IMG/VR virus record: IMGVR_UViG_3300045988_180190
Origin: a virus
Reading direction: 5' to 3' (one strand)
DNA length: 64,000 nucleotides
Positions 4,083-52,892 of the stretch are shown one piece after another. Numbering within the stretch: position 1 is the first letter of the stretch; each line of letters opens with the position of its first letter. The translations under genes and the position numbers were made by a program. Below the pieces are notes generated by a model, which saw nothing but the letters and a program-made list of their open reading frames with translations, did no database searches and was not told the origin of the DNA.

Positions 4083-4088
4083 TGCGAG

Positions 4089-4773: not shown

Positions 4774-4780
4774 TGTATGA

Positions 4781-5253: not shown

Positions 5254-5296
5254 AAAAAAACAAATCAAGGACCTATTCGAGGTCCTTGATTTGTTT
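5254..5296 (-). terminator. hairpin terminator
   Basis: CAAATCAAGGACC/GGTCCTTGATTTG stem overlapping the last codons of 5273..5644, followed by T7. Confidence 0.7.
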
Positions 5297-5644: not shown

Positions 5645-5776
5645 AATAAAAATTATATTAACTTCACCTATTTCCCATTTATAAACAGTTTATTTATAAA
5701 TGTATGTCAAAGTTAATATTCCTTTCTAAATATATATACCACAAGTATATAAATATTTTCATAGGATGTTATAATT
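5645..5776 (-). promoter_or_regulatory. cassette module C (diverged)
   Basis: Same architecture. AU-rich stem-loop at 5676..5702. Confidence 0.5.
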
Positions 5777-5813
5777 AAAAAAAAAGACCACCAGGGAATA
5801 ATCCCCAGTGGTC
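5777..5813 (-). terminator. hairpin terminator
   Basis: GACCACCAGGG/CCCCAGTGGTC stem followed by T9 on the minus strand. Confidence 0.7.
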
Positions 5814-5822
5814 TCGTGGAAC

Positions 5823-6158
5823 TTACTTGTACGTGAGCAAGTAAATCCCAAAACCATCTATCTTCGGAACAAACAGGACGACCTGTTTGACACGTATTCC
5901 GTTGACAGAGACCCCATTCTCCCAGGGGGTTTTTTTAACCGTGATTTTATTCTCACGGGGGAGAATATACCTTCCGCAAATAGCGCTTGCCATATGTGCG
6001 GCTCTTAATGAGCTGAACATTAGCATAGCACCATTACGGACTAGGCGCTTGAACCGCGCCTCCCCAAGCGGGGATATTTTTAATTCGCCCTCATAGAGGG
6101 ATATAGAATTCTTGTCGGTCACTATTATATTATCAATATTCATAATTGTTCCTTTCAT
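5823..6158 (-). CDS. hypothetical protein, cassette cargo
   Basis: The track ORF starts at 6185 inside the conserved ATGGGAAATTTAG module sequence. The internal Met (MKGTIMNID) at 6158 is the more likely start. Confidence 0.55.
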   Translation of the reverse strand: MKGTIMNIDNIIVTDKNSISLYEGELKISPLGEARFKRLVRNGAMLMFSSLRAAHMASAICGRYILPRENKITVKKTPWENGVSVNGIRVKQVVLFVPKIDGFGIYLLTYK

Positions 6159-6669
6159 TTGGAATTTTATTTCTAAATTTCCCATTTTATATGATTACAT
6201 AAAATGTCTAGAAATAATAAGCTAGCTTCTAATACAAGCTGAAGCTAGCTGGTGTGTAACCGTACAAGAATATAAAAGTGGCAAAGGAGAGAATTGCTCT
6301 CCTTCCCCACCCCTGAGGCATTGCCCCTTGGCAATCCTCAGGAGCCCCGCAATACACAACTTCAGCATAGGATAGCTGTCAGAGACACTCATGTCTAAGA
6401 GAGCCCTTTCCTTATATGTGCACACGGGGCAACCAACAACAGGTATTCCTCCCTGTTAGGTATTGTCCTGCTGGATACAATATACGGTCTCCAGAAGAAT
6501 ACCACCTCTTCTCCTAATTAGGAAAAGAGGTTTTCCTCTCCTTAAGGTACCAACCGCTTACCGCGATTGATACGCAGTTCGGAAAGGAATTTCCGTGAAG
6601 GATCTAAAATATCCTTTACTAAATATATATACCACAAAAGGTATATTTTTTTCATGTAGTGTTATAGCT
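6159..6669 (-). promoter_or_regulatory. cassette module D, split by an insertion of about 400 nt
   Basis: Promoter-proximal part at about 6600..6669. Stem-loop at 6183..6206. Foreign sequence lies between them. Confidence 0.55.
6207..6600 (-). ncRNA. candidate structured RNA / leader element, class unknown
   Basis: Chain of strong hairpins (e.g. CCTGAGGATTGCC-aagg-GGCAATGCCTCAGG, AAGGAGAG-caatt-CTCTCCTT, AGCTAGCTTC...GAAGCTAGCT). G-U pairs favour the minus strand. No credible ORF. Confidence 0.35.
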
Positions 6670-6709
6670 AAAAAAATACGCAACCGGTGGAAATCCACCG
6701 GTTGCGTAT
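6670..6709 (-). terminator. hairpin terminator (family 1)
   Basis: Same as 4734..4773 but with a compensatory A-T to G-C pair (ATACGCAACC/GGTTGCGTAT). Confidence 0.75.
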
Positions 6710-6715
6710 TGTGGG

Positions 6716-7234
6716 CTATTCTTGCCATTTTTTGGCAATGGCCCTAACTACTTCCCTTACGCTCTGGGGGAAGTCCCCAAAGTGTAAGAAAGTTTGTAGG
6801 GCCTGCGACGTACCCTCCGTCGCAACCTCAATGCCCCAGGTCGAGGATTTGTAAACCGCCAGGGGACACGGGGTCAACCCCTGGACGATGACTATGTCAT
6901 CGTTGGAGTTTATGTCGGCGTTTCCGCCGATAAAGCCCACACCACGTAGGAGGGCGTTCCCACCTATGTGGGCGTTTCCTCCTATTACCATATGGCCGCC
7001 TATAACGGCGTTACCATCTATGACGGCATCGCCCCTGAGCGACGCTGACTCACAGACCTCGGCGTTCCCGCCGACGATAGCCCTGTCTTCCAGGGTCGCG
7101 TCGTCCCATATAGACGCGTTGCCCTGGACGACGACCTGTTGCCCCACGTAAGCGTCATGATTGACGCTCGCGTCGTCTTTTATTGTTCCCTCAATAAGAG
7201 GGCAGCCGTACATAATGTGTTTATTGTTATCCAT
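6716..7234 (-). CDS. beta-helix repeat protein, paralogue of 4089..4598
   Basis: Alignable over its full length (GGNADINSNDDIVIVQGLTPCPLAVYKSSTWGIEVA vs GGFADINSNDDYVVIHGLAPRTLTIYKSSVWGVEVA). Confidence 0.7.
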   Translation of the reverse strand: MDNNKHIMYGCPLIEGTIKDDASVNHDAYVGQQVVVQGNASIWDDATLEDRAIVGGNAEVCESASLRGDAVIDGNAVIGGHMVIGGNAHIGGNALLRGVGFIGGNADINSNDDIVIVQGLTPCPLAVYKSSTWGIEVATEGTSQALQTFLHFGDFPQSVREVVRAIAKKWQE

Positions 7235-7368
7235 AACTATAATCTATTTACCTACACCTAAATTTCCCTTCTTACACAGAATATGTAAGAAGTCTAGTTG
7301 TAGATAAAATATCCTTTCTAAATATATATACCACAATTATCCGTATTTTTTCACAGGATGCTATAGCT
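7235..7368 (-). promoter_or_regulatory. cassette module E
   Basis: Same conserved block. Stem-loop at 7268..7292. Confidence 0.6.
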
Positions 7369-7396
7369 AAAAAAAAGAGAAGACCACAGTCTTCTC
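7369..7396 (-). terminator. hairpin terminator (family 2)
   Basis: GAGAAGAC-caca-GTCTTCTC followed by T8 on the minus strand. Confidence 0.7.
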
Positions 7397-7453
7397 TTCG
7401 CTATAACTAAACTGACATCTCCAACGGTTAAAACTCATTGGGTTCTAAGGTAT

Positions 7454-8041
7454 TTAATCCTTAAGTCGTAATTGTAGCTTCATTTCGGGGAACCTTTCTA
7501 ACAATTTCTTATACAAAAATAAAGAAGGTCTATTCTCTTTGTTAACTGTATATGCGTTCATATCAAACTTGTCTCCTTCTTCTAATAAGCTTTTTATCAT
7601 TGCTTTTTCTGCTAAACCTTTACCTCTAAATTCGGGAAGCACTCCTATAGAATAATAAGCTACACGTTTATTTTCGGGATTGGTTCTTACTTGCACACCT
7701 CTAAATCCTGCTGGGGCTCCTGTTTCTTCATCTTTTATAATTTCTAAAACATCGTCATTCCCATTATATCGCTCTTTATATAGTCCATGAGGAAAATAAC
7801 GTTTATTCTCTTCATAGATTCGAGATAAAATTTTATCAAGATCTCTTTGAACACCCTCAATATCCGTCGAACGTATTGATCCCTTTTTCTCTATATTGCC
7901 AGTTTCTTGTTTCCGCTTGTCTTTTCTTAGTCTAGAGAATAAGCGTAGTAGTCCAGGGGTAGCATATGAGGAATTTTCACTTTTTTTAGTTGATGCTTCT
8001 TTTTTTAATTGAAACTTAGAAATTAGTTGATCAATTGTCAT
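7454..8041 (-). CDS. GNAT-family N-acetyltransferase
   Basis: Motif A-like YYSIGVLPEFRGKGLAEKAM (R/Q-x-x-G-x-G/A). Confidence 0.6.
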   Translation of the reverse strand: MTIDQLISKFQLKKEASTKKSENSSYATPGLLRLFSRLRKDKRKQETGNIEKKGSIRSTDIEGVQRDLDKILSRIYEENKRYFPHGLYKERYNGNDDVLEIIKDEETGAPAGFRGVQVRTNPENKRVAYYSIGVLPEFRGKGLAEKAMIKSLLEEGDKFDMNAYTVNKENRPSLFLYKKLLERFPEMKLQLRLKD

Positions 8042-8210
8042 AATTTTAGAAATTTTTATTTATCAATATTAGTTGCGTTATATTGTCTGTCAACAAAGTT
8101 AATTTCCCTTCTTACGCAGAATATGCAAGAAGTCTAGTTATAGGTAAAATTCTCCTTTCTAGTTGCATATACCACTTTTATCTGTATTTTTTCACAAAGG
8201 TGTCATAGAT
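8042..8210 (-). promoter_or_regulatory. cassette module F (diverged)
   Basis: Same block. Stem-loop at 8108..8132. Confidence 0.5.
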
Positions 8211-8237
8211 AAAAAAAGAGAAGACTGTGGTCTTCTC
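8211..8237 (-). terminator. hairpin terminator (family 2)
   Basis: GAGAAGAC-tgtg-GTCTTCTC followed by T7. Same stem as 7369..7396 with an inverted loop. Confidence 0.7.
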
Positions 8238-8396
8238 TTCGCTATGACTATGTCAACTACTCACTAGACGAGCTAGTGAGCTTGTAACTAGGTATTACTA
8301 CCTGCTACAATAGGCTTGTTGGCGGAAGCCCTAAATTCCTCGCAATAGACAAGCTATTGCATATCCTTTCGGGATTTTAAATGAATAAAAATTAAA

Positions 8397-8753
8397 TTAG
8401 CCTCTTAAATTTGTATTTGTAATTAGTCTAGAATCAAGTTTTGCATATGGGCAATTAAATGCCGAGGATTCTATTTTTTTAAATATCACTTTATCTTTCT
8501 TATCAACTTCTTTATTGTCAGAAATTATTGATTCTGACTTAGATGACTCAGAGATTATATCATCATTATCATCCATTATCTCCTTAACTTCTTCTTTTAA
8601 TTCTTTAACTTCTTCTGGTGTAACTTGTTGCACAACTGTATATGGAGCGCCTTCGACCTCCACAAACGAGTTATCCAAATCCGTAACTTCATTGTGTTCT
8701 GATACTTGCGTATATTGAGTCTGTTTGGTTTGTGTATTTTTGCTTTTACTCAT
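8397..8753 (-). CDS. acidic hypothetical protein
   Basis: 118-aa ORF rich in D/E/S. Confidence 0.5.
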   Translation of the reverse strand: MSKSKNTQTKQTQYTQVSEHNEVTDLDNSFVEVEGAPYTVVQQVTPEEVKELKEEVKEIMDDNDDIISESSKSESIISDNKEVDKKDKVIFKKIESSAFNCPYAKLDSRLITNTNLRG

Positions 8754-35369: not shown

Positions 35370-35560
35370 TGAGTAATATGCCCGCAGCAAGCGGGCAAAA
35401 TTAAACAAGGGACACAAGCCCTTACACCCATGAAATAGTATCATGGCTGACATTCTCCAACCACTAAAGTAGTTGGGTTCTCCTAACCTCACGGTTTAGG
35501 TTTTCTGTTTCATCGGCGACTGCATTGGATGCTTCTGCATCCTTTAGTCTTACACCACCT
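35370..35560 (-). ncRNA. putative omega RNA (reRNA) of TnpB
   Basis: Overlaps the tnpB 3' end. Consecutive hairpins at 35428..35446, 35407..35423 and 35379..35397 (GCCCGC-ttgct-GCGGGC). Confidence 0.45.
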
Positions 35561-36663
35561 CCACAGACAAACACGACTTGCCCAGCCGCTAAAATATTTT
35601 TAGCTGCGTTTATATCTCTATCTAATACACTTCCGCAGACTGGACATGTCCAGGACCTTTCGGAAAGCTTTAAGTTTTGTTTGATATAACCGCAGTGATT
35701 GCAAGTTTTAGAGGAAGGAAAAAATCGATCAATGATTTTTAGCTCTCTTCCATACCACTTACATTTGTATTCCAATATATTGCGCAACATACTCCAAGAA
35801 GAATTGGAGATAGCGTGTGCTAACTTATGATTTTTAAGCATATTTTTTACTGCAAGATCTTCCATAACTATCGTTTGGTTTTCACGAATTAGTTTGGTTG
35901 TAATCTTATGTAAATTATCTATACGCTTATTTAAAATTGTTTGATAGCATTTAGCTACCTTGACGTTTGCTTTGGTTCTATTCTTAGAACCTAACTTTTT
36001 GCAAGAAGCCTTACGTTGCAATCTTCGTAATTTATTAAAATCTTTTTTAGTATCCGGATTTTTGAATACTTCCGCATTTGAAGTTGTTATTAAATTGTGC
36101 AGCCCCAAATCCAGACCTACGGATTTATTTGAAACGGGAAGTTTGCAATCTTCATTACGATCTACAGTAATTGAAAAATACCATTCTTGAGAAGGTGTTA
36201 ATCTAACCGTTAAGGAGATTAATTTATCTGTAGGTTTAATTCTCCAATTATCTTTAGATAATTTTAAAGGTTGCTTGGACTTAGCAATATAAACTTGGTT
36301 ATTTTTGATTCTAAACCCCGAAGTAGTAAATCTTGCTGAACTTCCTGAAGATTTCTTTTTAAACTTAGGGTATTTGGCGCGTTTTGCAAAAAAGTTATCA
36401 AACGCTGCGCCTAAATTTTTTATAGCTTGTTGTAAACAAACATTAGATACTTCATTTAACCATGAGTATTCAGGCTGACGTTTCCATTTTGTAAGCTCTT
36501 TCATTAAATCAAACGAACTTAATGATTTGCCTGTTTGCGTAAATGTTGAAGACTTAAGATCAAGACTTTTATTATAGATAAACCTAGCGCATCCCAAGGT
36601 TCTACGTAGAAGAATCTCTTGATCTTTTGTAGGATAAAATCTATGCTTTATAGTCTTTATCAT
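35464..36663 (-). CDS. tnpB: RNA-guided endonuclease TnpB
   Basis: N-terminal HRFYPTKDQEILLRRTLGCARFIYN. RuvC residues in GLDLGLH, IVMEDL and DRDINAAKNI. Zinc finger CNHCG...CPVCG. Confidence 0.95.
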   Translation of the reverse strand: MIKTIKHRFYPTKDQEILLRRTLGCARFIYNKSLDLKSSTFTQTGKSLSSFDLMKELTKWKRQPEYSWLNEVSNVCLQQAIKNLGAAFDNFFAKRAKYPKFKKKSSGSSARFTTSGFRIKNNQVYIAKSKQPLKLSKDNWRIKPTDKLISLTVRLTPSQEWYFSITVDRNEDCKLPVSNKSVGLDLGLHNLITTSNAEVFKNPDTKKDFNKLRRLQRKASCKKLGSKNRTKANVKVAKCYQTILNKRIDNLHKITTKLIRENQTIVMEDLAVKNMLKNHKLAHAISNSSWSMLRNILEYKCKWYGRELKIIDRFFPSSKTCNHCGYIKQNLKLSERSWTCPVCGSVLDRDINAAKNILAAGQVVFVCGGGVRLKDAEASNAVADETENLNREVRRTQLL

Positions 36664-40336: not shown

Positions 40337-43300
40337 TTACTTAATTTGGTATTTCTGGCAAGCGTTTTTTAGTCCAATTTGTAATTCATGTTTTTCTTCT
40401 TCCGAAGGAGCTGTGCTCCAACGCTTTGTGACTTCAACTTCAATATTATATCGTAATCTGCCTCCTTTCAAATCCCAATAATTGTTATCCGACATAAAAA
40501 ATTTAAGCATACTGCTAGCGAGATCTACTTCCTCATAGGGTGCTAAAATGTAAATAGCGTCATATAACGGTATCACCGCCCTACTTTTCATATGCAACCT
40601 CATGAAACAAGCATTTAATGCAGGTATAGCTCTTGCTAGTGAATCAGCAACCAATGACTGAAGCCCTATATTACAAGCTTCTCTACGTAACTTACTAACA
40701 ATACTTTCCCTTAGATCATCTGACATTTGAGCATCCAGAGGGGGAACTTTGAAATGGCGTTTAAAACCTGAGGGAGACAAATAATACCCCTGTCCCTCTG
40801 GGAGAGTTTTGCACCAATCTAAATATTCTTTTACCTGTGGCTTGGTATTCATATAACCGTCAATAACTTTTTGCCCGGTACCAGGTTCTGGTTTTTCTCC
40901 AGCGGCAATCTCAATTTTTCTCTCCAGCAATGAGGGGCTTGCACCATAAGGTATAGAGTTATGTGACAAAAGGGTCATATCTATATACTTATGTGTATCA
41001 CACTCAATAGCTATTACGTCATATGAAGGAATCAGTTCTTTCGAGACTACTTTAATTATAGCTACAGTTTCCCCTAAGAAGAAATGATCTAAATAAGTTA
41101 ATGACAACTTATGATCACCCTCTAAAGTTGTGCACCAGCCTATCGTAGATGCTAAGACTGCTAAATCGGATAGTAGATCATCGTTAGGAGACTCTAAGCT
41201 TTGTTCCCCTTCCTTAAACAATTTGCAAATGATTTCACTTCTTATGGTTGGGTCACACACAAATAACTCGCAAGGAAGTCTATACGACATGTTACTAGAG
41301 TTACTAATAATATCATTCACGAAATAATCTACGTCATGACTTACATTAACATCCTTTTTCCCGAATGGAATATTAAAGCTAAAAGAAAGAACGTCGGCAC
41401 CTATGCTTAAATCTTCCACCTTTTCCCATTTCTCATAATGGCTGTCTCTACCATCACGTGAAACCCTCAGTTTATGGTCGCTCTTAAATGTAGCTACCAC
41501 ACCATTACTAAAGCGCACCTTATAGCATTCTTGATCCTTTAACCTTACAACATTAAGTACTCTTGTGGCATCAAACGGAGATTTTAAATAGTCTCCTACT
41601 TGAATAGTGTTAGCCTTAACATATCCACCCTTAGATATAGAATAAATATAATTTTCTTCTCCAGAGCAGAAATTAGCGGTTTTGCCTATAGCATTACGTG
41701 TTTTACGCTTATCGAGTTTTTCCCGTGGAGTATTTAAAACATATTTATTCTCTACGGCTGTCCAATGAACATCCTGTAGCGGATGTTTCAGGGTTCCATC
41801 TTTATTACGTACCAAATCTGGGTCATTAGGATCTGTAAGCAATGCTGGGTCTTTCGCATCTTCTGTGAATTCCACTATGTCATCACAGTATGCTATACGC
41901 ACTTGCTTAATACTCCCATCCGGCATTTTCTTGAACGCAAATTGAGGATCAGGGTCATTCAGTGTAGCAATCAATTTTTTGTCATTTGCTAAATATGCGA
42001 TCGTGAATACCTCCGCTGTGGCGTAGTCGGCATCAACAAAACAATAACCTTCTGGGGCTTTGAAACACCATCTTAAAGGTACAGGAACCAAATCCTTAAT
42101 TGTTATATTCTCTTTTATATTATAAGTACTTTTCAGAGAATCAACAATACTCCTAAAATTATCTTGGTCGTAGTTTGAAGTGTCAGATATATCTTCTACA
42201 TTAAGAAACTTTAAAACTTTCTTAAATCCATGACTAATATAGTCGGAAACGTCACTTGGAACATTTAATATATTTGGTTTAAACGACCGTGGTCTACTCG
42301 ATTCGGTCATAACAAAGTTGGAATGCAGCCTTCCATCCGAAGTTAAATACTTTTGCAATCCACCGTCTTCCCCCTTCAAGAAACTTTTTGTAACTTGGTT
42401 TATAGCATTTAGTTGTAATAAATGCAAACATAAGTCATCCCCTTTATCAGAAAATATCTTTAACGTATCTTTATCCACTGCAGGAGAATATTTCTTTTGT
42501 TTAGCCGGGGGCATTTTTAAGACTCTCTCCCAGGGAATGGCATTTCCTTCTTGGGGTTTTGTAGTCTTGATCGGCGTGTACTTTTTTATGTCAAATAGCC
42601 AACGCTTTTTATGATCCGCAGAATTAGGATTAAAAGAATCTATTGTGTAATAATGCTCGAGATAAGGTAGGATAGGCAAGGCATTGCGTTTATACAAGCG
42701 TTTCAAAAGATTAAATATATCTTCCAAACTTCTACCTTCTTCAAAATATCTTTGTATTTCTGCAATATTAGCGATAGGGGTTTCTTGAGCTATCTTAGAG
42801 ACTTCAGTATAAAATAAGTCATGCGCCTCTTTTTTAATCATCATCATAAATAGCTTCTGCATTATAAGACCTGCAGCGAGATAAGCTATTCTAGCTTTAT
42901 TAGCATCCTCTGCGCAAAATGGTACCCCCGCTATAGACATAGAGGTAAATCCATCAATCACAAACGGCAATTTTATATTCATAAAATAGTCATAAGTGCC
43001 GTCCCTTATTAGCATGTCTTTTATAATTGGATATAATCTAAAGGTCACATCTGCGTCAGAACATCCGTAAGGAAACAAAATACTCAATGGAATTTGACCA
43101 TATCCTTGTTCCTCGTCAAAAGACACTCCTTTATTAGATTTTTTCCAAAGAATCAGCTCAATGTCATATCTACCTTTATCTGTATACTTTGCTGCCAGTT
43201 TCTCCAATTTTTGATCCGCATATTCGTCTACAGTTTGTATGCCAAACATTGTATCAAAAATAAACTTTCCATTATACACCTCTAAACCTAAATGTGTAAG

Positions 43301-44266
43301 CATCCACTGTGCGTCAGCTGCACCATTATGCCCTATATAATGAATATCAGGAGAATTAAAGAAACTCTGTAAAAGTTCACAGACCTGTTCCTTGGTAGCG
43401 TCAAACACCCATTCCCCTTGCTCATTATTGAGATTAATATATGCAGCCTGACCCGGAGCCCAAGCAAATTGGATTGATCTAAGATACCCATCCACAAAGC
43501 ACTGCTTGCCCCACTCACAGTCCACACTGAATAATTTATAATTATTGGATTTAAAGTACTCTATTAACTTCTTAAGGTGATCAAATGTTGACACACATTG
43601 GTAGTCGCAAGGTATTTGTTGTATCGTTGTTCCTTGGAGGAAGTGATCGTAAAAATTTGCTAAGATACGAATATCTTGATTAAGTTTATCATACAACTCA
43701 GGCTTATAATAAGCTTTATAGATACTACTAATTACAAAAACATGTGCATTATACTTCTCACTAAAAAACCAAGCTTCTTCGAGTTTAGACACACTTATTT
43801 TATAATTTAAAATAAAATCGCAAGCTTCTGCCCCAACACAGACGATTATCTTTGGATTACAATACCGCATCTCTTCCTCAAGGAGAGGTAAGCAATAATT
43901 TATATCTTTTTTAATACCCTTTAAAACAGACTGATTTAACCCATACTTCACCACAGAAGTAAAATAACAGTCGTCCAGGTCAATGCCGTTTTGAAGGCAT
44001 AAAGACCTAAACATTTCCCCTGCTCCAGATTTTAAATGCATGGGCGCAGAATATCTTGAGTCAATATCTTCCTTCAAAGGCGCCGGAACTAAAAACATTA
44101 TATCTGCCCCAAGTCTACCAACACCATTAAGAAATACTACATTATCATTTTCAGGAGAAGTATCATCTTTTATTCTTTTAAGTGATAGATCACCACAAAA
44201 GTCCGATAAGCTTGGACAAGGTAACTCCATGTTTACCTTGGGAAAATTAATTTCAGTTTCTTTCAT
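40337..44266 (-). CDS. family A DNA polymerase with N-terminal UDG-like domain and 3'-5' exonuclease, intein-containing
   Basis: Exo I VDCEW, Exo II HNGAADAQW, Exo III YGCSDAD. Motif A VDADYATAEV. Motif B RNAIGKTANF[intein]SIPYGAS. Confidence 0.9.
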   Translation of the reverse strand: MKETEINFPKVNMELPCPSLSDFCGDLSLKRIKDDTSPENDNVVFLNGVGRLGADIMFLVPAPLKEDIDSRYSAPMHLKSGAGEMFRSLCLQNGIDLDDCYFTSVVKYGLNQSVLKGIKKDINYCLPLLEEEMRYCNPKIIVCVGAEACDFILNYKISVSKLEEAWFFSEKYNAHVFVISSIYKAYYKPELYDKLNQDIRILANFYDHFLQGTTIQQIPCDYQCVSTFDHLKKLIEYFKSNNYKLFSVDCEWGKQCFVDGYLRSIQFAWAPGQAAYINLNNEQGEWVFDATKEQVCELLQSFFNSPDIHYIGHNGAADAQWMLTHLGLEVYNGKFIFDTMFGIQTVDEYADQKLEKLAAKYTDKGRYDIELILWKKSNKGVSFDEEQGYGQIPLSILFPYGCSDADVTFRLYPIIKDMLIRDGTYDYFMNIKLPFVIDGFTSMSIAGVPFCAEDANKARIAYLAAGLIMQKLFMMMIKKEAHDLFYTEVSKIAQETPIANIAEIQRYFEEGRSLEDIFNLLKRLYKRNALPILPYLEHYYTIDSFNPNSADHKKRWLFDIKKYTPIKTTKPQEGNAIPWERVLKMPPAKQKKYSPAVDKDTLKIFSDKGDDLCLHLLQLNAINQVTKSFLKGEDGGLQKYLTSDGRLHSNFVMTESSRPRSFKPNILNVPSDVSDYISHGFKKVLKFLNVEDISDTSNYDQDNFRSIVDSLKSTYNIKENITIKDLVPVPLRWCFKAPEGYCFVDADYATAEVFTIAYLANDKKLIATLNDPDPQFAFKKMPDGSIKQVRIAYCDDIVEFTEDAKDPALLTDPNDPDLVRNKDGTLKHPLQDVHWTAVENKYVLNTPREKLDKRKTRNAIGKTANFCSGEENYIYSISKGGYVKANTIQVGDYLKSPFDATRVLNVVRLKDQECYKVRFSNGVVATFKSDHKLRVSRDGRDSHYEKWEKVEDLSIGADVLSFSFNIPFGKKDVNVSHDVDYFVNDIISNSSNMSYRLPCELFVCDPTIRSEIICKLFKEGEQSLESPNDDLLSDLAVLASTIGWCTTLEGDHKLSLTYLDHFFLGETVAIIKVVSKELIPSYDVIAIECDTHKYIDMTLLSHNSIPYGASPSLLERKIEIAAGEKPEPGTGQKVIDGYMNTKPQVKEYLDWCKTLPEGQGYYLSPSGFKRHFKVPPLDAQMSDDLRESIVSKLRREACNIGLQSLVADSLARAIPALNACFMRLHMKSRAVIPLYDAIYILAPYEEVDLASSMLKFFMSDNNYWDLKGGRLRYNIEVEVTKRWSTAPSEEEKHELQIGLKNACQKYQIK
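40958..41668 (-). mobile_element. intein (237 aa) in PolA motif B
   Basis: Starts at Cys867 after KTANF. Block B is FKSDHKLRV. Ends LLSHN followed by Ser1104. Confidence 0.8.
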
Positions 44267-44324: not shown

Positions 44325-47300
44325 TTATCCACAAGCGGACCACCCGCAGCTATAACATTTTTTACAACCCTCTTCTCGCAGGACTTTACCCCCACAGACG
44401 GGACAGGTCTCTCCCAAGTCTAACTTACCAGCGCATTGTAACAACACCTTGTTTATAGCTTTTACAATCGATGTGAAATCTCCTTCAGTTTTAGATAGCT
44501 GATGTATAATTTCTTTTAATGATACACCAGATTGAAGATTCAAAGCTACCAGTCTTGCCAAGGCTGTAAGCGTTGCCTTATCCGAGGACTCATTTGTTTT
44601 AACTATTTTGTAATGGAATTTGCCGTCCTTAGAGGTAAACTCAAATGTAGCTTTAGCTATTTTTCTTAATGTTCCCTCCTTGACGTGTTTAGGTATAATC
44701 CTACGGCGTTCAACCCATTCTCCTTCGTCATCAAATATATTATCCTCATTTATATCTATAAACATCTCAAAGGGGCAATCTCCAAGAAAGCTTACTATAA
44801 AGTAGTAGGATACTCCTTTGACTGTTCTAAAGAATACCCTACAAGGCAAAACGTCTGGACGTTTATCAGCAGTTATTGTTGGGTGGATAATAGAAGTAGA
44901 AGTTGGATTTACGTCTTCTTTAGCATCTGTAGACTGTAAGACGGCACTCATTGAGCCTTCTCTGTAGGTAGTAACCCCTTTAATTACTCCGCTATTATAT
45001 GCGTCTAAATAAACGTTCTTAAACTGTTCATAAGGATAGTCCTTACCGACATTTATCGTTTTACTTACAGCGGAATCCAAATGCGCAGATACGAGTTTCA
45101 GAATTTCCAGATGAGATTCAACAGGCAATTGCATAGCTGTTGTGAAAACTTCCTGTGGATATTCTAAATTATGATCCTTAATCCATTGATAGGCATAATC
45201 TCTTATGAGCACCTTCTTGCAAAGACCTCTATCCTTATGTATCTGATACTCTACGCCATCTTCTCCTGTGTAAGTTAGATACGTGAAGTCAGCATATTTA
45301 GCTTCTTTAAAGTACGCATTAGGTTTAAAGTCTCCCTCCCAGAATCTAGGGCATTTATCTCTTAGAAAATCTGGAATATTAGGCATTCCTACGATGCGGT
45401 AGTACTCTAGTTGAAATACAGGTTCTACGCCTCCTGAAATATTATTTGCCAAACAACCAGTATTTCCCGTGGGCTGGACTGAGAACAAGGCTGAATTGCG
45501 AATGCCGTTAGTTTCTAACAATTCTTTTTGCAAAGCATCCAATATATACTTCGGCAGATGTCTAAACGTATATTTTATATTATCAGCATGTTTTGCAGGA
45601 TTACATCCTTTAAACGCACCTTTACATTTAGCTAAAGCAATGCTTGCCCTTATCCCTAAGAAATTATAAACATCAAAAACTTTAGTTAAAAAGTCTTTAG
45701 CTTCCGTAGAATCATATTTTAAACCCAACATCATTAAGGCAGAACCTATGCCTGTAATGCCAAGTCCGATTCTTCGATAGCTTTCAGCCATATATTTATA
45801 TTCTTTCAAAGGCAGATTCGCAATGTCTATGACATTATCCAAGAATCTTACGCAATAAGGAATAATATCGGAAAACTTCTGAAAATTAAAAACAGCAGCG
45901 TGTTTGATTTCATCATATTCTATAAATGCTGTGAGATTGATGGATCCTAAATTGCAGCATCCTCCGCTGTATAAAACCTGCTCTCCGCACTGCTGATTAT
46001 TAAGCATATAAAATTTTGGATGTCCATGTTCGTTCACAGTTTCAAACATCCCAACGCAATAATTATGCACATCATCAACTGTACCGGTATAGACATCTTG
46101 TTTGCCTATATATTCAATAGACACAATTCTATGATTAAAATCAACAGCCTGCGTCTTTAAATCCGCGTAAGAACGGAAAGCAGAAATCGGACCAAATCTA
46201 TGAGGAATCTTATTTTGTTTGCAATAAGAATCAAACTCACATTTAAATGGATCTCTTGACAGAGCAAATTTTAAATCCGTATAAGCTTTAAGTTGTCTTA
46301 TTCTATTCTCACCTTTTGTCTTAGAAGCATAGTTTGAAATTCCCTGTCGCAAATGCTGTATGTAATTTTCCTGCTTAAGTTTGTTACGATTCACACAGAG
46401 ATTTGAACAAAAAGCTACTTCCCTGCTTTGGAAAGGTGTAAAGAACTCTTTACCACAATTTTCACAAATCTTTTTTACTAAAACTCTATTATTAACAATC
46501 TTTGTTTCATAACCTTGTGATACGGCATTTAGATATGTTCTTTGCAACCTACTATCACATTTCATTAAATCATTATAAACACCTAAAGCTTTAGCAGCAT
46601 ATTTACAAATATCACGAATACCTCCGCCTCCAAAAAACTTGACACGATAATCATCATTAAATGACTGTAATACGTGAAAACCTCTAGAAGCTAACTCATC
46701 TTGTAATTCTTTTACAGAGAAGAATCTTTGATATTTTAAAATTAAATCTTTCGCAATATCTAAAAGTATCTCATTAGAAACACCTTTATAATTCTTATTC
46801 TTTTCTCCAAATGAAGCATTTTTTTGCTTCTCTTTATAGGAATCCCACTTTGCCTTAGTCCACTCTGTAGCGGCACGACACATAGGATTAGTCTTTCCAA
46901 ACATACGCTTACAATGTAAAGCATCATGCGCAGCTTTTGACATAACTTCTAAATTATCTAAAGAATTATTTAATCCGTTATAATCCTTATGATGCACAAC
47001 TTCTGCATTAGTGAGTCTTCTACCTATAACATATTCAGCATTAATGCGATGTAATGCCTTGCGAGACTTTTTTCCGGAAGTCTTTATCCAAGCATATAGT
47101 TGAGAATTACTCGATCTATTAAAGATTTCATTAAACTTCTGGTATGAAATAGAAGCAACATACAAAGATTCTCCTGGGGACATATCTTTTACCTCTTTAT
47201 ATGTACCATCGGATAATCTAAACTTATGATTAGACGTGCAATCAATATGATTACCATCATCTAAAGTCACTCGATAAATATCTTTATTATAGCCTGTAAT

Positions 47301-48467
47301 ACGAGGATTACGCATTAACTTTGTAACAATATTGCCAGCATTATCACAAGCTAACACCGGAACATCTCTGCCAGCTTCGGCCAACTCTTTAATAGTCACA
47401 TTTGTACGCCCGTCAGCAACAGCAACTTTGGTATCTCCAGTAAGACAAGGATTTGTCCCAACTAATTGCAACTCAGGTATATAGTTTGCGCAATGTGTCT
47501 CATTTGCCCTATCGAGAAATAAAACTCCAGGTTCCGAACGATTGCTAGTAGACTGCATTAAAGCTTCCCACAAATCCGTAGCCCTAACTGTGCGATAAAC
47601 TTTAACGGGGTAACCTTTTTTCTCCCATTTATCCAAGTCTCCATCCCATTCGGATTTATATTTTTCAAAAGCCGTATCAGGAAATCTCAATTGCCAAAAA
47701 TCAACAGCATCGATTTCTTCCTGCGAAGCATTGTTTTTAACAAGATCGTTAACTCTATTTAAAATATCCATAAAAGCATTGGTAACATTTACGGACATAT
47801 TCATTTTCGTTAAATGAAACGGCTTTTGCTTGGCAGTAATAAATTCGTAAATATCAGGGTGCCAGCAGCTTAAGCATAGCATCATTGCGCCCTTACGAAT
47901 TTTCTTCTTTTCGTTCTTGGGCGTTTTTTCTTTACTCTCTATATAATAATCTCCCGGACCTTCCGTAATAATCTCGGAACTTTTATCAAACAGCTCCAAA
48001 TACTTCACAGCGCCGGGTGTTCTAGCACCTATGCCTTCTATATAAGAACCTCTGGGACGAATAAAACTGCAATTTAAACCCCAACCCCCTTCAGATTTTA
48101 AAGTCAAAACCTGATTCTTTAAGACCTCCATGATTCCTTCAACGGAATCCATATCATACTTAGGTTGGGGGGATAAAAAACAGTTGACGAGGGAGACATT
48201 TGTGCAATTTCCCCCGGCATTTGCCAATATGCGGCCTCCGGGTATAAACTTAAAATCTTTTAAAATATCATAAAAAGCATTGGCATAAAATCTTTTGGAT
48301 TCGTCATCCTTTTCTACGTTAGCTACGGCATTTGCCACACGTCTCCATGTATCTGTAATACTATTTTCATTTTGCGTTTTATAAGTTACTTCCCAAATCT
48401 GACGGGAAAAATCATTCGTAAACGGATCCGGATTATCCGGAGTTTTTGCTTTTAATTGTTCGTCCAT
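44325..48467 (-). CDS. ribonucleotide reductase, class II-like, intein-containing
   Basis: GTNP[intein]CGEQVLYSGGCCNLGSINL restores NPCGEQ...CNLGSINL. C-terminal Cys cluster CPVCGG...CKKCYSCGWSACG. Confidence 0.8.
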   Translation of the reverse strand: MDEQLKAKTPDNPDPFTNDFSRQIWEVTYKTQNENSITDTWRRVANAVANVEKDDESKRFYANAFYDILKDFKFIPGGRILANAGGNCTNVSLVNCFLSPQPKYDMDSVEGIMEVLKNQVLTLKSEGGWGLNCSFIRPRGSYIEGIGARTPGAVKYLELFDKSSEIITEGPGDYYIESKEKTPKNEKKKIRKGAMMLCLSCWHPDIYEFITAKQKPFHLTKMNMSVNVTNAFMDILNRVNDLVKNNASQEEIDAVDFWQLRFPDTAFEKYKSEWDGDLDKWEKKGYPVKVYRTVRATDLWEALMQSTSNRSEPGVLFLDRANETHCANYIPELQLVGTNPCLTGDTKVAVADGRTNVTIKELAEAGRDVPVLACDNAGNIVTKLMRNPRITGYNKDIYRVTLDDGNHIDCTSNHKFRLSDGTYKEVKDMSPGESLYVASISYQKFNEIFNRSSNSQLYAWIKTSGKKSRKALHRINAEYVIGRRLTNAEVVHHKDYNGLNNSLDNLEVMSKAAHDALHCKRMFGKTNPMCRAATEWTKAKWDSYKEKQKNASFGEKNKNYKGVSNEILLDIAKDLILKYQRFFSVKELQDELASRGFHVLQSFNDDYRVKFFGGGGIRDICKYAAKALGVYNDLMKCDSRLQRTYLNAVSQGYETKIVNNRVLVKKICENCGKEFFTPFQSREVAFCSNLCVNRNKLKQENYIQHLRQGISNYASKTKGENRIRQLKAYTDLKFALSRDPFKCEFDSYCKQNKIPHRFGPISAFRSYADLKTQAVDFNHRIVSIEYIGKQDVYTGTVDDVHNYCVGMFETVNEHGHPKFYMLNNQQCGEQVLYSGGCCNLGSINLTAFIEYDEIKHAAVFNFQKFSDIIPYCVRFLDNVIDIANLPLKEYKYMAESYRRIGLGITGIGSALMMLGLKYDSTEAKDFLTKVFDVYNFLGIRASIALAKCKGAFKGCNPAKHADNIKYTFRHLPKYILDALQKELLETNGIRNSALFSVQPTGNTGCLANNISGGVEPVFQLEYYRIVGMPNIPDFLRDKCPRFWEGDFKPNAYFKEAKYADFTYLTYTGEDGVEYQIHKDRGLCKKVLIRDYAYQWIKDHNLEYPQEVFTTAMQLPVESHLEILKLVSAHLDSAVSKTINVGKDYPYEQFKNVYLDAYNSGVIKGVTTYREGSMSAVLQSTDAKEDVNPTSTSIIHPTITADKRPDVLPCRVFFRTVKGVSYYFIVSFLGDCPFEMFIDINEDNIFDDEGEWVERRRIIPKHVKEGTLRKIAKATFEFTSKDGKFHYKIVKTNESSDKATLTALARLVALNLQSGVSLKEIIHQLSKTEGDFTSIVKAINKVLLQCAGKLDLGETCPVCGGKVLREEGCKKCYSCGWSACG
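45990..47447 (-). mobile_element. large intein (486 aa) with an HNH endonuclease domain in the RNR active-site motif
   Basis: Starts CLTGDTKVAV (Cys341). Block B is CTSNHKF. HNH motif VVHHKDYNGLNNSLDNLEVMSKAAHDALH. Block F-like VYTGTVDDVHNYCVG. Last residues are NNQQ before Cys827. Confidence 0.8.
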
Positions 48468-48502: not shown

Positions 48503-49834
48503 TCAATACAATTCATATCTTCTTTTAAGGTCTAAAATAATGTTTTGATCCATTATTTCTCCTAAGTCTTTATAAGCTAATGGATAATCTAGCTCATCAA
48601 CAGAAATACCTCCTAACATAGAAATACTTCTACGAAGTTTCGAAGCCGTGGAGTTTCCAACTGTATCATGATCCACAGCCAAAATAATCCTATCAAACAT
48701 ACCGTTACTAATTAGTTTTAACTGTCCTACAGATAGAGAACCTCCCAAGTATGCGCAGAAGGGAGGTCCCATACGAGCCGCATCCATTACCCCCTCACAC
48801 AAACCTATCACTCTAGAACCGGGAGTTCTTTCAAGATTAAACTCTCTTGCTGCGTCAAATCCCATCAAGACATTCCCCGCCTTAGAACCTGGAGATAAGT
48901 AATATTTCTTCTTGGCTATAGACGGATACACTCCTTCTATAGGTATAAACTTACCTTGAGAATCCTTTTCAGCCACTTTGTAGTACCCACTAATCCTTCC
49001 GTAGGGGTCGTCTACAAAATGAGCATAGAGTAATTTATCATTTCCCACTTGTTTATCAAGTACCCTCGCCTGCCACAGCTTTGGTTTACCTAACTGCAAA
49101 GCGGTAAAAATTAAACAACCCTGGGGCGTAAAAAACTTAAAGGGGTCCACAACATAATTCGTGGTATCTTTCCCTAATTTCAGGTGTTTTAATTGAGGGT
49201 TTTCCTTGACGCAAAAAGAAGTGTTAAACTGCTTTACTAAAGAAGTCATATCTGTAAAGCCTCTGTCGTTCAGATATGCAACAGCCGGATGGTTTACTGG
49301 AAGTGCGTCTACTGGTATCAACTCCCCGGGAGATACCCAGGTGCTTTCCGAAGGTGAAGTGTCGCCAAACACCATAGCTGCAGATAATATGTCTTTGTTT
49401 TTGTAATTTTTGAGAAAAGGCCCAGGGTCCCAGCTCAAATACCACTTATATGATCTGTCACGGTGCCTCACTTCAATCGGTCTCATTTCCAATAAGTCTT
49501 TTATATTATAAAACTTATTTGTCTTTACACATCGTGCTGCATGGTTGTGTCCCTCTGCTGCAAACTTCGATAAATTTATATATAAATGTTTGGAAGATAA
49601 TTCTTTAGGTCCATCTTCCTGAAGTAATTCCGGGTCTGGTATAGATAGTTCCACATGGTTACTGTCTATTACATGAAGTTTTCCGGTGTAATGGATCATT
49701 AAAAGTCTAGTGAGCAATCTTTGTATCTGCTGGCTCAACTTGAAGTTTACTGCATTACATGTTCTTTCTAGGGAAGATAGGTCTATTTTTAACATCCTGT
49801 CGTTTAGGATAAATGTTTTTGAAGATGTTGTCAT
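48503..49834 (-). CDS. Toprim-domain DNA primase
   Basis: GLCEGVMDAARMG (Toprim Glu) and ILAVDHDTVGN (DxD). Confidence 0.6.
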   Translation of the reverse strand: MTTSSKTFILNDRMLKIDLSSLERTCNAVNFKLSQQIQRLLTRLLMIHYTGKLHVIDSNHVELSIPDPELLQEDGPKELSSKHLYINLSKFAAEGHNHAARCVKTNKFYNIKDLLEMRPIEVRHRDRSYKWYLSWDPGPFLKNYKNKDILSAAMVFGDTSPSESTWVSPGELIPVDALPVNHPAVAYLNDRGFTDMTSLVKQFNTSFCVKENPQLKHLKLGKDTTNYVVDPFKFFTPQGCLIFTALQLGKPKLWQARVLDKQVGNDKLLYAHFVDDPYGRISGYYKVAEKDSQGKFIPIEGVYPSIAKKKYYLSPGSKAGNVLMGFDAAREFNLERTPGSRVIGLCEGVMDAARMGPPFCAYLGGSLSVGQLKLISNGMFDRIILAVDHDTVGNSTASKLRRSISMLGGISVDELDYPLAYKDLGEIMDQNIILDLKRRYELY

Positions 49835-49992
49835 AGCTTCTATATTTTCTGGTTATAGCTATTATTGTGGTGAGTTTATTTACACGTAGTTTTCATAGGT
49901 AGTGTTCTTTCTTTTACGTTTTTAGTTGAATTGTATCTAAAAAATCTCTCGTTTATGCAGAAATCGTTTACGATTTCAGCATAAACTTATTA

Positions 49993-50026
49993 GTTTCTTT
50001 AAGATTATGTAAAGAATATTCAGTAT
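49993..50026 (+). repeat. 34-nt perfect direct repeat, copy 1
   Basis: gtttctttaagattatgtaaagaatattcagtat, identical to 50572..50605. Confidence 0.95.
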
Positions 50027-50091
50027 TTATTTATTCTCTAAATATAATTTTGAGCCTTTTTAGTACTGTTTTATTCTCAAAATTATATTTC

Positions 50092-50480
50092 TAAGTAAGC
50101 TTCAAGCTTTAGCCTTGGTAGCTTACTTAGCTTTAAGACACAAGCAGGCTTGTGTCTTAAAGCATACCATTGGGGGAGCACTTTACGGTGCTATCAGGCT
50201 AATACATAAGAGCCAGCAATGCGCTGTGTGGACTAGGATTAGGATATATCTTTACCACTTATCCTCCCCTCAGCAGTCTCTCAAGACCTTAGGTGCGTCT
50301 TTTATCCACAAGCCTCCTGTGAATCACCAAGGTTTTGCTTTGCTACCACCCAAGCCTAATAGGCTCAATACGCAGCTTAGTATGGACACAGCAAACCCAT
50401 CTTCCACCTTAACATTCTCACTCAGTTCTTTCTTTAGTTTCCGGATTTTTCCCCAGATAACTTTTATCTTCCGGTTTTTT
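50092..50480 (+). ncRNA. candidate structured RNA, class unknown
   Basis: TAAGTAAGCT...AGCTTACTTA, a 15-bp hairpin at 50130..50163, long-range GCTGTGT/ACACAGC and GGGGAG/CTCCCC pairings. Ends CCGGA...TCCGG-T6 on the plus strand. Confidence 0.3.
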
Positions 50481-50571
50481 CTATATTATAAGTAATGTAA
50501 TATAAAGAATAAGATCATAATAGTAAGCTTACCACTACCTCCATAGAAAACATTTTTTCACTTAAGCCATC

Positions 50572-50605
50572 GTTTCTTTAAGATTATGTAAAGAATATTC
50601 AGTAT
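50572..50605 (+). repeat. 34-nt perfect direct repeat, copy 2
   Basis: Identical to 49993..50026. Confidence 0.95.
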
Positions 50606-50828
50606 AGACAATGCTTCGGCAAATTACATACACTTGACACCACGCTTTCTTGAATATCCCTCAAAAATTTCATAAATTTACAATTTTAGCTTATTATTTT
50701 CCTAATGAGTTTTTGCATCTTTTTATCTATTACAAATTTACGTATATTAAAATTTTTTATTAAAAATTCTTGACGCATTTAAAATTAGTAGTCATTATCG
50801 GGTTAATTAATTTAAAAACAACACCCTC

Positions 50829-52892
50829 ATGAACGATAAAACTATCCAGCAAATTGAATTCGATTCCTCCCCCTGGGATGAGGAATTGCCCTATGAATAT
50901 GTGGGAGAAGATGAACATGATAAGGTTTTAGAGGACCTTTGCAAACTTCTTAGGACACCCCTTGATCCTGATATACATAGGAAAGTAAATCCAGATTATG
51001 ATACACGTTGCACAAATCTACTGTCCCACAGACATCAGATACCTAAAGGCTTTAAATACTCCAAGCCATTTAACTACTCTGAAGAGGGCAGAAAACGAAA
51101 AGTTTATCTGATGCAACAAATCAATCTCAGAAAGGCTGAGAAGAGAAGGGCTGAAGCACTAGCTAAACAACAACTTATCAATTCAACCGAAGAAGAGCAC
51201 TCCGAAGGAAATGCAACTCAAGGGGTTAGTCAAGATGCAATCTCTAGTGACCAAGGTTGGATTACTTCAGAGGGTCGCATTCACTTGCCTAAAAAGGGCA
51301 TACCCTCCATTAAGTTTCCCCAAATCTATCTTCCTCAATATAAAACTTACAGCAAATCCTACAATCGCATAACCATTGCAGATACACACTCTTTGTATTT
51401 TAGAGAGGTAAAAGCGGATATTGCACCATGGGATAATGAAGTGCTACAATTAAAATTTATATTTGAATCCGTTGAAAGTGACGGACTTAAATTCTCTAAT
51501 ACCATCTTAATTAGACCCAAATGGTCTGTTGCTGAACGCGCTGAAGATAATTCTCTTAAATTCTTTGAGCAGTATCTTAAGAACCTGATCCCCGCTTTAG
51601 GAGGCAGGCTTCGTAAGAATACCTATCAAAAAATGATGTTTGAGTGGACAAAGATAATGCTTGATGTTCCGGATTTTATGGAATACGACAAAACTAATTT
51701 AAGACTGGTAACCCCTGAAGCTTCAAGTCATAAGTATTCCTCCTGGAAACACAATATGGAACGTATTCAGTCATACTTTACTAAATACTACAATCGTAAG
51801 GTTGTCACTATATTACGTTATGATTTCCTTAATCCAAAATATCACACAGTATCTTTGGTACCCCACAGGTTTTTTAAGACCCGCACTAAACGTAGTGACC
51901 TACTTCCTGATATAAAACAAGCAATCGATAAAAGTATTAGTATATTTCAAGATCGCTACAATACTATATCCAAGATCGCATTGGACTCCGGGGAAGCTAT
52001 GGAGAAAGTATACCCAATGGTAGGTCCGGGATTTTGGGGAAAAATTGATAAAGCGAAGTATGAAATAGATTTACCCAAAGCGATTCAAGATCTAGAAACG
52101 CTAAAGAAAAAGTTGAAATCTATGGGCATTAAGCAAGTATTTCGTCCTGGACTGGACTATATAATGAAGTCTGGGGCTAAAGTATATGGAGTTATAGATA
52201 ATCCTAAAACTTTAGAGGAAGAATTTTGTAACGACATGCGCAGAATATGGTATGCTGAAGATTTAAACACAAAGGAAGACCTTACTCCACAAGTCCCACA
52301 ATGGCACATACAGCGCTTGTTGTCTCAGCTATGTCGACACAAAAAATATAAGGATTTACCCATGGAAAGAAAGATTTATCTTACAGGATTGCTTAGACAT
52401 GAAAATGATAAAATTTTTCATAATGACGTTGTTAAGGATATGGAAGAGCTGCAGATTTATGAAAACAGAGAAAAGCTTTCCGAAACTTTAGCGGACTTTG
52501 TATTTCAGCAAAGATTTTATTTTATGCCAAAAGGACCTGTAGGCAGGAACTCCAAAAAGTTCGGAAATAGAGACAGATGTGCAATATACGATTTAGCAAT
52601 AAAACCTTTATTATATAAACTCGCAAAAGGCGTGATTGAAGGTTCTTGCAAAATTAATACATTTGTAGTTAATATCTTGGCTAAGGCAAAAAAATCTATT
52701 CAGTCCTTATTTGGATATGGTAAGTTTTTTAAGCAGTACCTTAATTACAAAAGAGGGGGTCTTACGTTTGACCAGTATGATAAATTAGCCGATAAATGGC
52801 AGCAAGATAACGCTTACGTTTCAAACAACTTATGGATTCCCATCGTGGAGGAAGCTTATTTATCCTTGCACGATGGGAAATCCCAGAAATAA
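50829..52892 (+). CDS. large basic hypothetical protein (687 aa)
   Basis: Long ORF on the opposite strand to its neighbours. K/Y-rich. No motif recognised. Confidence 0.7.
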   Translation: MNDKTIQQIEFDSSPWDEELPYEYVGEDEHDKVLEDLCKLLRTPLDPDIHRKVNPDYDTRCTNLLSHRHQIPKGFKYSKPFNYSEEGRKRKVYLMQQINLRKAEKRRAEALAKQQLINSTEEEHSEGNATQGVSQDAISSDQGWITSEGRIHLPKKGIPSIKFPQIYLPQYKTYSKSYNRITIADTHSLYFREVKADIAPWDNEVLQLKFIFESVESDGLKFSNTILIRPKWSVAERAEDNSLKFFEQYLKNLIPALGGRLRKNTYQKMMFEWTKIMLDVPDFMEYDKTNLRLVTPEASSHKYSSWKHNMERIQSYFTKYYNRKVVTILRYDFLNPKYHTVSLVPHRFFKTRTKRSDLLPDIKQAIDKSISIFQDRYNTISKIALDSGEAMEKVYPMVGPGFWGKIDKAKYEIDLPKAIQDLETLKKKLKSMGIKQVFRPGLDYIMKSGAKVYGVIDNPKTLEEEFCNDMRRIWYAEDLNTKEDLTPQVPQWHIQRLLSQLCRHKKYKDLPMERKIYLTGLLRHENDKIFHNDVVKDMEELQIYENREKLSETLADFVFQQRFYFMPKGPVGRNSKKFGNRDRCAIYDLAIKPLLYKLAKGVIEGSCKINTFVVNILAKAKKSIQSLFGYGKFFKQYLNYKRGGLTFDQYDKLADKWQQDNAYVSNNLWIPIVEEAYLSLHDGKSQK

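Follow-up and report, generated by a model that had tools for sequence, protein, structure and literature searches.

Twin direct repeats and a conserved hairpin outline a putative control module beside the primase gene of an uncultured gut phage lineage

The virus record IMGVR_UViG_3300045988_180190 provides the DNA considered here, a stretch of 64,000 nucleotides (nt) that is called the window in what follows. Its largest gap between genes, 994 nt long, separates a DNA primase gene (48503 to 49834, minus strand; Pfam Toprim_2, PHROG DNA primase), which serves as the anchor for finding the same place in related phages, from ORF687 (50829 to 52892, plus strand), a fast-evolving and lineage-restricted open reading frame (ORF). 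To the left of this gap, on the minus strand, are the primase, a ribonucleotide reductase with an intein and an HNH endonuclease, and a family A DNA polymerase-UDG fusion, while to the right ORF687 is followed by a DnaB-type helicase and tRNA-Asn on the minus strand. Within the gap are two exact copies of the 34-nt sequence GTTTCTTTAAGATTATGTAAAGAATATTCAGTAT, the perfect direct repeat (DR) that a preliminary description of this DNA had reported. The primase-proximal copy, DR1, is at 49993 to 50026 and the second copy, DR2, at 50572 to 50605, 224 nt upstream of the start codon of ORF687; both are in plus orientation and contain a dyad, TCTTTA-N8-TAAAGA, followed by the TA-rich GAATATTC. Judged from comparison with related loci, this repeat pair is not a chance duplication and appears to mark a conserved, lineage-specific non-coding control module beside the primase.

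When the 994-nt gap was shuffled 300 times with its composition kept, exact repeats reached at most 14 nt. No further copy of the repeat with up to three mismatches was found in the 64-kb window (nor did shuffles give any), and besides the two full copies there is a partial match of 19 nt (79%) at 50493. There was no exact match to GTTTCTTTAAGATTATGTAAAGAATATTCAGTAT in 185,579 species genomes, and the repeat and the core of the island that it brackets were found nowhere else in IMG/VR, the core being present only in two sister contigs; other 17-mer matches of the core in IMG/VR were set aside as chance. A contig from a sister phage (L015, positions 1 to 214 of the Logan k=31 contig SRR23918761_150) stops about 10 nt downstream of the DR2 position, as is expected if a repeat of at least 31 nt in that sample breaks the assembly graph.

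Loci related to the window, given here by L numbers, were fetched by means of primase homologues of 38-99% identity and come from human-gut metagenome contigs of 103-175 kb that belong to an unclassified lineage. Their primase is on the plus strand, so that the plus strand of the window corresponds to their minus strand. Six clades carry a long perfect or near-perfect repeat pair in the gap beside the primase (21-67 nt, 457-786 base pairs (bp) apart), which disposes of the random duplication, absent from all relatives, that the preliminary description had allowed for. In the clade of the window itself (window, L003 and L004/L024; primase 99-100% identical) the repeat is 34 or 32 nt long with a start-to-start spacing of 579-584, and the 579-bp unit, for which a search in relatives had been suggested, is present in all four sequences in the form of two repeat haplotypes. 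The repeat is 21-24 nt long in L016 and L026-L032 (eight sequences, primase 76%, spacing 783-786), a perfect 30 nt in L017 (67%, spacing 776) and a perfect 23 nt in L018 (51%, spacing 662), while L019/L020 (43%) contain two interleaved perfect pairs of 67 nt and 32 nt (spacing 457 and 626) and L048 (38%) has 50 nt that match at 98% and an adjoining 49 nt that match at 73% (spacing 526). A seventh arrangement is seen in L045 (53%), where the pair is inverted, with 38-nt arms that are 97% complementary and have 579 nt between them. In each clade the pair is far longer than anything in shuffles of its gap, which never rose above 14-19 nt. The pair is absent from L021, L022 and the loci with a primase no more than 37% identical (L034 to L044).

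The gaps of different clades gave no blastn or nhmmer match to one another, and hence no cross-clade covariance model could be built. The core of the repeat can be recognized in the window, L018, L017 and L045 as TTTCTTT, a variable loop, AAAGAA and ATAT-like bases, and a layout recurs at the proximal copy, in which a strong T-flanked hairpin lies toward the primase and the repeat is followed by two or three AT-rich hairpins and, often, G runs. That the layout is kept in relatives whose sequences differ argues for a real control element. The motif AAATGCCC(C)TTAAA also recurs, in hairpin loops of L016, L045 and L048.

The hairpins beside and between the repeats had been noted in the preliminary description, and all of them exist, each slightly longer than was claimed. 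The one between primase and DR1 (49951-49967 / 49970-49986) has 17-nt arms that are 94% complementary and is flanked on the plus strand by an A6 run before it and T-rich sequence after it, and on the minus strand by a T6 run after it. Relative to L004, four of its pairs are changed on both sides and none is broken, such that the block 49951-49986 diverges by 27% yet is still fully paired. By this pattern of substitutions the hairpin is a selected structure, and it looks like a bidirectional terminator or insulator that would shield the primase from the module; equivalent hairpins adjoin the primase-proximal repeat in L016, L017 and L018. On the other side of DR1, three perfect hairpins abut one another at 50040-50163, with stems of 15 bp (50040-50054 / 50076-50090), 11 bp (50091-50101 / 50120-50130) and 16 bp (50130-50145 / 50148-50163). 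The window has 25 perfect hairpins with a stem of at least 10 bp, no others of which are clustered in this way, and the cluster sits in the most AT-rich part of the gap, the fraction of guanine plus cytosine (GC) being 0.19-0.22 across 49950-50099 and dropping to 0.19 at 50000-50099. The arms of the three hairpins are unchanged in three sequences, where a neutral rate would predict about 10-14 changes, while the loops vary, and this invariance suggests that the sequence itself is constrained in addition to its pairing. In L016, L017 and L018, too, AT-rich hairpins of an analogous kind come after the proximal repeat. A cloverleaf in which a closing stem surrounds the three hairpins was considered and rejected, as the stem forms in the window and L003 and not in L004.

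Beyond the hairpin cluster is a GC-elevated non-coding core (50164 to 50440, not assigned to a strand), which starts with a G5 run at 50165-50169. The elevation described previously was reproduced (0.44-0.48 at 50100-50400, compared with 0.19-0.30 in the flanks), as was the lack of coding capacity: an ORF of 126 amino acids at 50115-50495 is missing from both close relatives, where it is interrupted by single-base indels and the substitutions lack codon periodicity. The core is constrained, because the block 50164-50350 differs from L004 by 8.5% and the third codon positions of the flanking genes by 11.5-16.7%; within it, 50206-50307 is nearly invariant, with just two to four substitutions. 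A perfect DnaA-box 9-mer, TTATCCACA, is located in the conserved core at 50302-50310 and reads TTATCCGCA in L004.

The conservation of the core is not accompanied by signs of RNA structure, and the core as a structured RNA is not supported by the comparison. The island as a whole folds strongly (z = -5.7 and -5.1) because of its perfect hairpins, and RNAalifold, applied to both strands in two clades, found covariation only in the 49951-49986 hairpin; in the core, broken pairs were about as frequent as one-sided changes. A plus-strand RNA of about 390 nt had been proposed, for which chance-level folding and the lack of covariation in the GC core give no support as a structured RNA. Nor did the long-range pairings that had been listed survive the comparison: GGGGAG of GGGGAG/CTCCCC is GGCAAG in L004 with no matching change, ACACAGC of GCTGTGT/ACACAGC is ACTCAGC in both relatives, uncompensated, and in the pair CCTTAGGTG/CACCAAGG the second member becomes CTCCAAGG in L004, also uncompensated. 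The weak terminator-like site CCGGA...GATAACTTTTATC...TCCGG-T6 on the plus strand at 50441 to 50480, listed as well, is present as read from the sequence, but in L004 a change of G to T at 50473 breaks its outer stem; it is skipped by the terminator scanner because its loop exceeds 8 nt. An Rfam search, which had also been suggested, matched no family at the island, either in the window (gathering and E-value modes) or in seven related loci (gathering mode), the best E-value matches being chance hairpins.

The two repeats have evolved in concert. Four substitutions, A9T, G17A, A29G and G30A, separate the repeat of L004/L024 from that of the window, and all four are found in both copies; DR1 of L004 has one extra change near its 3' edge. 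The divergence of the repeat between the window and L004 (12-15%) is at the level of synonymous sites, as measured by the third codon positions above, which means that its exact sequence is only weakly constrained, yet the copies stay alike. This points to gene conversion between them or to selection for their identity, acting on a surviving functional core. The twin repeats are a clean natural example of how two short sites evolve in concert while drifting at close to the neutral rate.

The reading that we tentatively favor is that the repeat would be a promoter-sized regulatory cassette used twice in plus orientation, heading a non-coding unit and then ORF687. The cassette would consist of the short dyad and a TA-rich, -10-like hexamer and would be preceded by a stem-loop. 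DR1, insulated from the primase by the presumed bidirectional terminator hairpin, would head the non-coding unit with its three hairpins and GC-richer core, which would probably serve the control of the replication-gene cluster, and DR2 would head the transcription unit of ORF687. The cassette would probably be read by phage-specific or activator-dependent transcription machinery, which is proposed on the ground that the phage has a gene for a multisubunit RNA polymerase of its own, and recombination or gene conversion would keep the copies identical, as for other repeated cassettes of the same genome. Promoter activity, strand, transcripts and the role of the non-coding unit are what we infer here, as distinct from the repeat, its conserved architecture and concerted evolution, the selected hairpin and the missing coding capacity.

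Several features of the repeats are consistent with such a cassette, and it is on their size and orientation, the promoter match in L019 and the stem-loops that our preference for the duplicated promoter of the preliminary description rests. The repeats are 21-38 nt long (50 and 67 nt in two clades) and have sharp boundaries, with the TA-rich hexamer 4-11 nt before the 3' edge, so that identity stops about where transcription would start and covers about the span from a -35 element to the start site. In L019, both 67-nt copies hold TTGACA-18-TAGAGT (10/12 matches to the sigma-70 consensus) in the orientation equivalent to plus, and a terminator-like hairpin comes after each. Such a hairpin follows the repeats within about 55-215 nt in L019 (5873-7000) and L048 (2530-3485), which suggests that these loci may contain pairs of small paralogous RNA genes with identical promoters, the promoter match being seen in L019 only. 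The distal copy points at an ORF687-like start from 224 nt upstream in the window, 180 nt in L016 and 63 nt in L018, and the flipped proximal copy of L045 faces the primase from 63 nt upstream. In four clades DR1 has a strong stem-loop ahead of it (z -4.4 to -8.0), as does DR2 in L016 and L018 but not in the window or in L017. In both clades tested the relatives break fewer pairs in plus than in minus orientation (11 vs 18 and 21 vs 38), whereas consensus folding energy favors plus only in the L016 clade, the minus strand folding more stably in the window clade; taken together, support for a plus-strand RNA is weak.

A number of results weigh against a twice-used promoter. The repeat of the window has no recognizable -35 or extended -10 element and its plus strand was not called by the promoter scanner; a better -10 hexamer can be read from the minus strand (CATAAT; TATAAT in L004), and promoter-like matches in the gaps are no more common than in shuffles. 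These scans used a sigma-70-type consensus that may not fit the host of this phage, and a scan for Bacteroidota-type TAnnTTTG promoters was not informative. ORF687 has a sigma-70-like promoter of its own downstream of DR2 (TTGACG-17-CATTAT, plus strand, 50770 to 50798, from the promoter scan), whose hexamers also occur in L018 as TTGACG-16-CATTAT, there upstream of the distal repeat. The repeat does not recur as a genome-wide promoter class: complete contigs of 110-164 kb each contain exactly two copies of it, no copies of a looser dyad pattern were found upstream of other genes and no enriched upstream motif came out of a genome-wide search. In L017 no ORF follows the distal copy, and in L016 and L018 a terminator-like hairpin comes almost directly after DR1, so that a transcript from DR1 would be very short there unless it was read through. 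Finally, the folding of the GC core (50164-50485) does not exceed that of its shuffles (plus strand z = -0.9, minus strand z = -1.1).

The second-best reading, a possible one on which we are nonetheless doubtful, is that the island is a DNA element for replication, an origin or its control site, where the repeats would bind a phage initiator, the AT-rich hairpin cluster would be the zone of unwinding or priming and a transcript may help in priming. It fits the position of the module, which is always between the DnaB-type helicase and the primase, whatever the other neighbors, and in the window is the largest gap, as well as the AT-rich region adjacent to the repeats, where GC falls to 0.19, the unique three-hairpin cluster with its invariant arms and the strongly conserved non-coding blocks that lack RNA covariation. 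Terminator-like hairpins bracket DR1 in several clades, which would shield it from read-through, G or C runs are present in most clades, and L045 has an (AT)n tract of about 90 nt, where L022 and L048 have shorter tracts that are AT-rich or TA palindromes; even the inverted pair of L045 would be tolerable for a largely palindromic binding site. The origin with iterons of the preliminary description, however, is retained only in part, since there are two copies some 457-786 bp apart and not a cluster of at least three iterons, no switch in GC skew (which is negative on both sides of 50 kb, without a change of sign) and no cluster of DnaA boxes, the island having one and the whole window four perfect ones, with no enrichment in relatives. 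Furthermore, the half-sites of the dyad are spaced by 6-12 nt, a variation that a rigid dimeric binder would not tolerate, there is no recognizable initiator gene (ORF687 has no recognizable domain and is absent in L017, L019 and L048), and the relatives L021 and L022 have no module. The half-sites TTCTTT and AAAGAA were also considered as iterons in themselves and rejected, being enriched only about fourfold. The origin and the promoter could both hold, as at transcription-activated phage origins.

The sameness of the copies would be explained by an identity-dependent antisense control, in which a minus-strand RNA made over DR1 and ending at the 49951-49986 terminator would contain the repeat in reverse complement and so pair perfectly with DR2 in the plus-strand leader of ORF687. 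Because the repeat drifts in concert at the neutral rate, selection would appear to act on its identity and not on its sequence; in L048 the duplication has kept 98% identity over 50 nt and decayed to 73% over the 49 nt beside them, a primase-strand terminator is located 0-10 nt after DR1 in the window, L016, L017 and L018, predicted promoters in L016 and L018 place the distal copy inside the leader of the ORF687-like gene, and the inverted pair of L045 would fit two transcripts from one strand. We nevertheless regard it as unlikely, since gene conversion is a simpler account of the concerted changes, promoter prediction gives no start for a short minus-strand RNA over DR1, the ORF687 promoter of the window is downstream of DR2 so that the messenger RNA may exclude it, the repeats of L019 themselves carry promoter matches, and L017, L019 and L048 have no divergent target gene. 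Quite improbable, too, is that the repeats are tandem promoters, or nut-like RNA sites, on the minus strand for the primase operon, with the island as leader and 49951-49986 as an attenuator overcome by antitermination. The hairpin and T run after DR1 would suit this, as would the position of the proximal copy upstream of the next primase-strand gene in every clade, and the best -10 of the window is on the minus strand, where TTGTCT-17-CATAAT (9/12) overlaps DR2, with TTAACA-17-TACTAT at the proximal copy of L016. The -35 hexamer, however, is outside the repeat and is not common to both copies, the proximal copy in L045, being flipped, would face away from the primase, the repeats of L019 match a promoter on the other strand, and it is in plus orientation that fewer pairs are broken in both clades. 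For a mobile insertion with target duplication or att-like ends, or a functionless relic of tandem duplication, one may cite the direct repeats around a segment of differing GC and the TnpB/IS605 elements found in this phage and beside the primase in relatives. Such an insertion, one of the readings in the preliminary description, is nevertheless very improbable, as the unit is at the same locus in 4/4 sequences of the window clade (window, L003, L004, L024) and 8/8 of the L016 clade with no empty site, its ends change in concert and have not decayed independently, the neighborhood has no recombinase gene, neither the repeat nor the island core is present at any other place in IMG/VR (and the repeat is in 0/185,579 genomes), and the interleaved A-B-A-B order in L019 is impossible by nested insertion; the core motif conserved across clades speaks against neutrality. 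To our knowledge, IS200/IS605 elements make no such duplications. CRISPR arrays have repeats of 23-47 nt and spacers of about 26-72 nt, and an array or mini-array was rejected here because its spacer would be 545 nt and its repeat is unmatched in the 185,579 species genomes; no cas genes were seen among the scanned ORFs, about 16 of those in the window having been searched. A genome terminus or terminal repeat was likewise rejected, given that contigs from several assemblies run through the gap; three contigs stop about 7-9 kb short of the fetched primase locus, at about 12-14 kb from the primase itself. Across these alternatives, we see some chance, and not a large one, that the module is an undescribed type of replication control, either a transcription-insulated origin with matching sites or an identity-dependent switch working by antisense or strand transfer, with a non-coding transcript of one copy that would act on the other; in either case selection would act on the sameness of the copies and not on their sequence.

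ORF687 gave no useful match in Pfam, PHROG, PDB sequences or an exhaustive HMMER search, and 1.84 billion representatives yielded just two matching clusters. With its counterpart in L016 (2429-4744) it shares 30% identity, the primases of the same pair being 76% identical, and it has no detectable similarity to the gene in the same position in L018 (2911-5028). By these comparisons ORF687 is a hypervariable orphan gene inside an otherwise conserved replication module. Searches of the DnaB helicase (tblastn) against 50,697 deposited phage records and of the gap (blastn) against deposited phage records gave no match, and scans of 185,579 bacterial and archaeal genomes revealed neither a host origin nor prophage relatives; a host-derived sequence was rejected. 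The ribonucleotide reductase large subunit (44325-48467, minus strand) is split by its HNH-bearing intein, and in relatives there are other inteins (LAGLIDADG), or the enzyme is replaced by anaerobic NrdD; the family A DNA polymerase with its N-terminal UDG domain (40337-44266, minus strand) is unusually long (1309 amino acids). Genes of TnpB/IS605-type transposases are present in the window (35464-36663, minus strand), L016 (7333-9015), L018 (1-311) and L045 (3730-4928), near the primase or helicase in these three relatives. At the left end of the window, a minus-strand gene (588-3983) encodes a protein of 1131 amino acids that matches PHROGs annotated as RNA polymerase beta subunit, and since the phage has a multisubunit RNA polymerase of its own, host-type promoter scans may miss phage promoters. 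The 587-nt gap at that end contains, on the minus strand at 167-204, the Rfam abiF RNA motif (43.4 bits, gathering threshold 37). A further gap, at 6186-6715 on the minus strand, has a GC-rich sequence of about 400 nt (core about 6215-6640) with a minimum free energy of -181 kcal/mol and z = -9.9 against shuffles; it directly follows an early promoter cassette and has no Rfam match. From its predicted folding, this sequence is a better candidate for a large structured phage non-coding RNA than the island beside the primase.

Replication origins and the control elements of middle genes are unknown for most uncultured gut phages, and the lineage of the window has no relatives at the level of the helicase among 50,697 deposited phage genomes. 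The module, that is the paired repeat, the insulating hairpin and the AT-rich hairpin cluster, provides a recognizable landmark at which an origin or a switch of replication genes can be sought in such phages.

Each of the readings has its counterpart among known systems. In divergent trans-antisense pairs (tisB/istR-1, zorO/orzO and dinQ/agrB), and also in the P4 CI RNA with seqA/seqC, the paired sequences must co-vary, and here an intergenic direct repeat of about 20-35 nt would likewise make opposite transcripts complementary; in contrast, the island has no small toxin ORF and a search within it found no seqB-like complementary element. In iteron origins such as lambda ori, P1 oriR and R6K, three to nine or more iterons, each about 19-22 bp long, form a cluster that an initiator gene adjoins or overlaps. 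The module resembles them in having dyad-bearing repeated sites that adjoin an AT-rich region near replication genes, and differs in having two distant copies and no recognizable initiator. The primary origin of T7 comprises the tandem promoters phi1.1A and phi1.1B and an AT-rich region, and oriF and oriG of T4 a middle promoter and a downstream unwinding element. The likeness here is that repeated promoter-sized elements adjoin an AT-rich segment beside replication genes, with G runs downstream that could stabilize an RNA-DNA hybrid, whereas the copies are 579 bp apart and not adjacent, and there is no skew signal.

For the twice-used promoter-type cassette, the counterpart is found in the PeSL (promoter-early stem-loop) cassettes of T4-type phages, in which a stem-loop and then a promoter flank units of 0.4-1.4 kb, the cassettes recombining with each other (Arbiol et al., 2010, PMC2839356; Comeau et al., 2014, PMC4122927). 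The module of the window differs from these in having exactly two copies and not many, in copies that bracket a non-coding unit in a conserved replication module where PeSLs flank ORFans in a hyperplastic region, and in a repeat without a clear sigma-70 -35/-10 pair whose DR2 has no adjacent stem-loop. It shares with them short repeated cassettes, some of whose copies have a stem-loop just before the putative promoter, near-identical copies close to fast-evolving genes, and an identity that would be both maintained by recombination and exploited for it. The same window also has PeSL-like cassettes in its early region, among the small minus-strand genes at 3984-8400, whose intergenic regions have perfect stretches of 25-44 nt in common (at 4677, 5197, 5720, 7312 and elsewhere) and the order of a terminator hairpin with a T run, ...TGAAAATATTTATATAATTGTGGTATATATATTTAGAAAGGA and a second hairpin, and these are an in-window precedent for reading the twin repeat as such a cassette. 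We rate the module as a variant of known phage regulatory or origin architectures, and if it is indeed a cassette used twice, it would be a variation, surprising only to a moderate degree, on the promoter cassettes that are known from phages.

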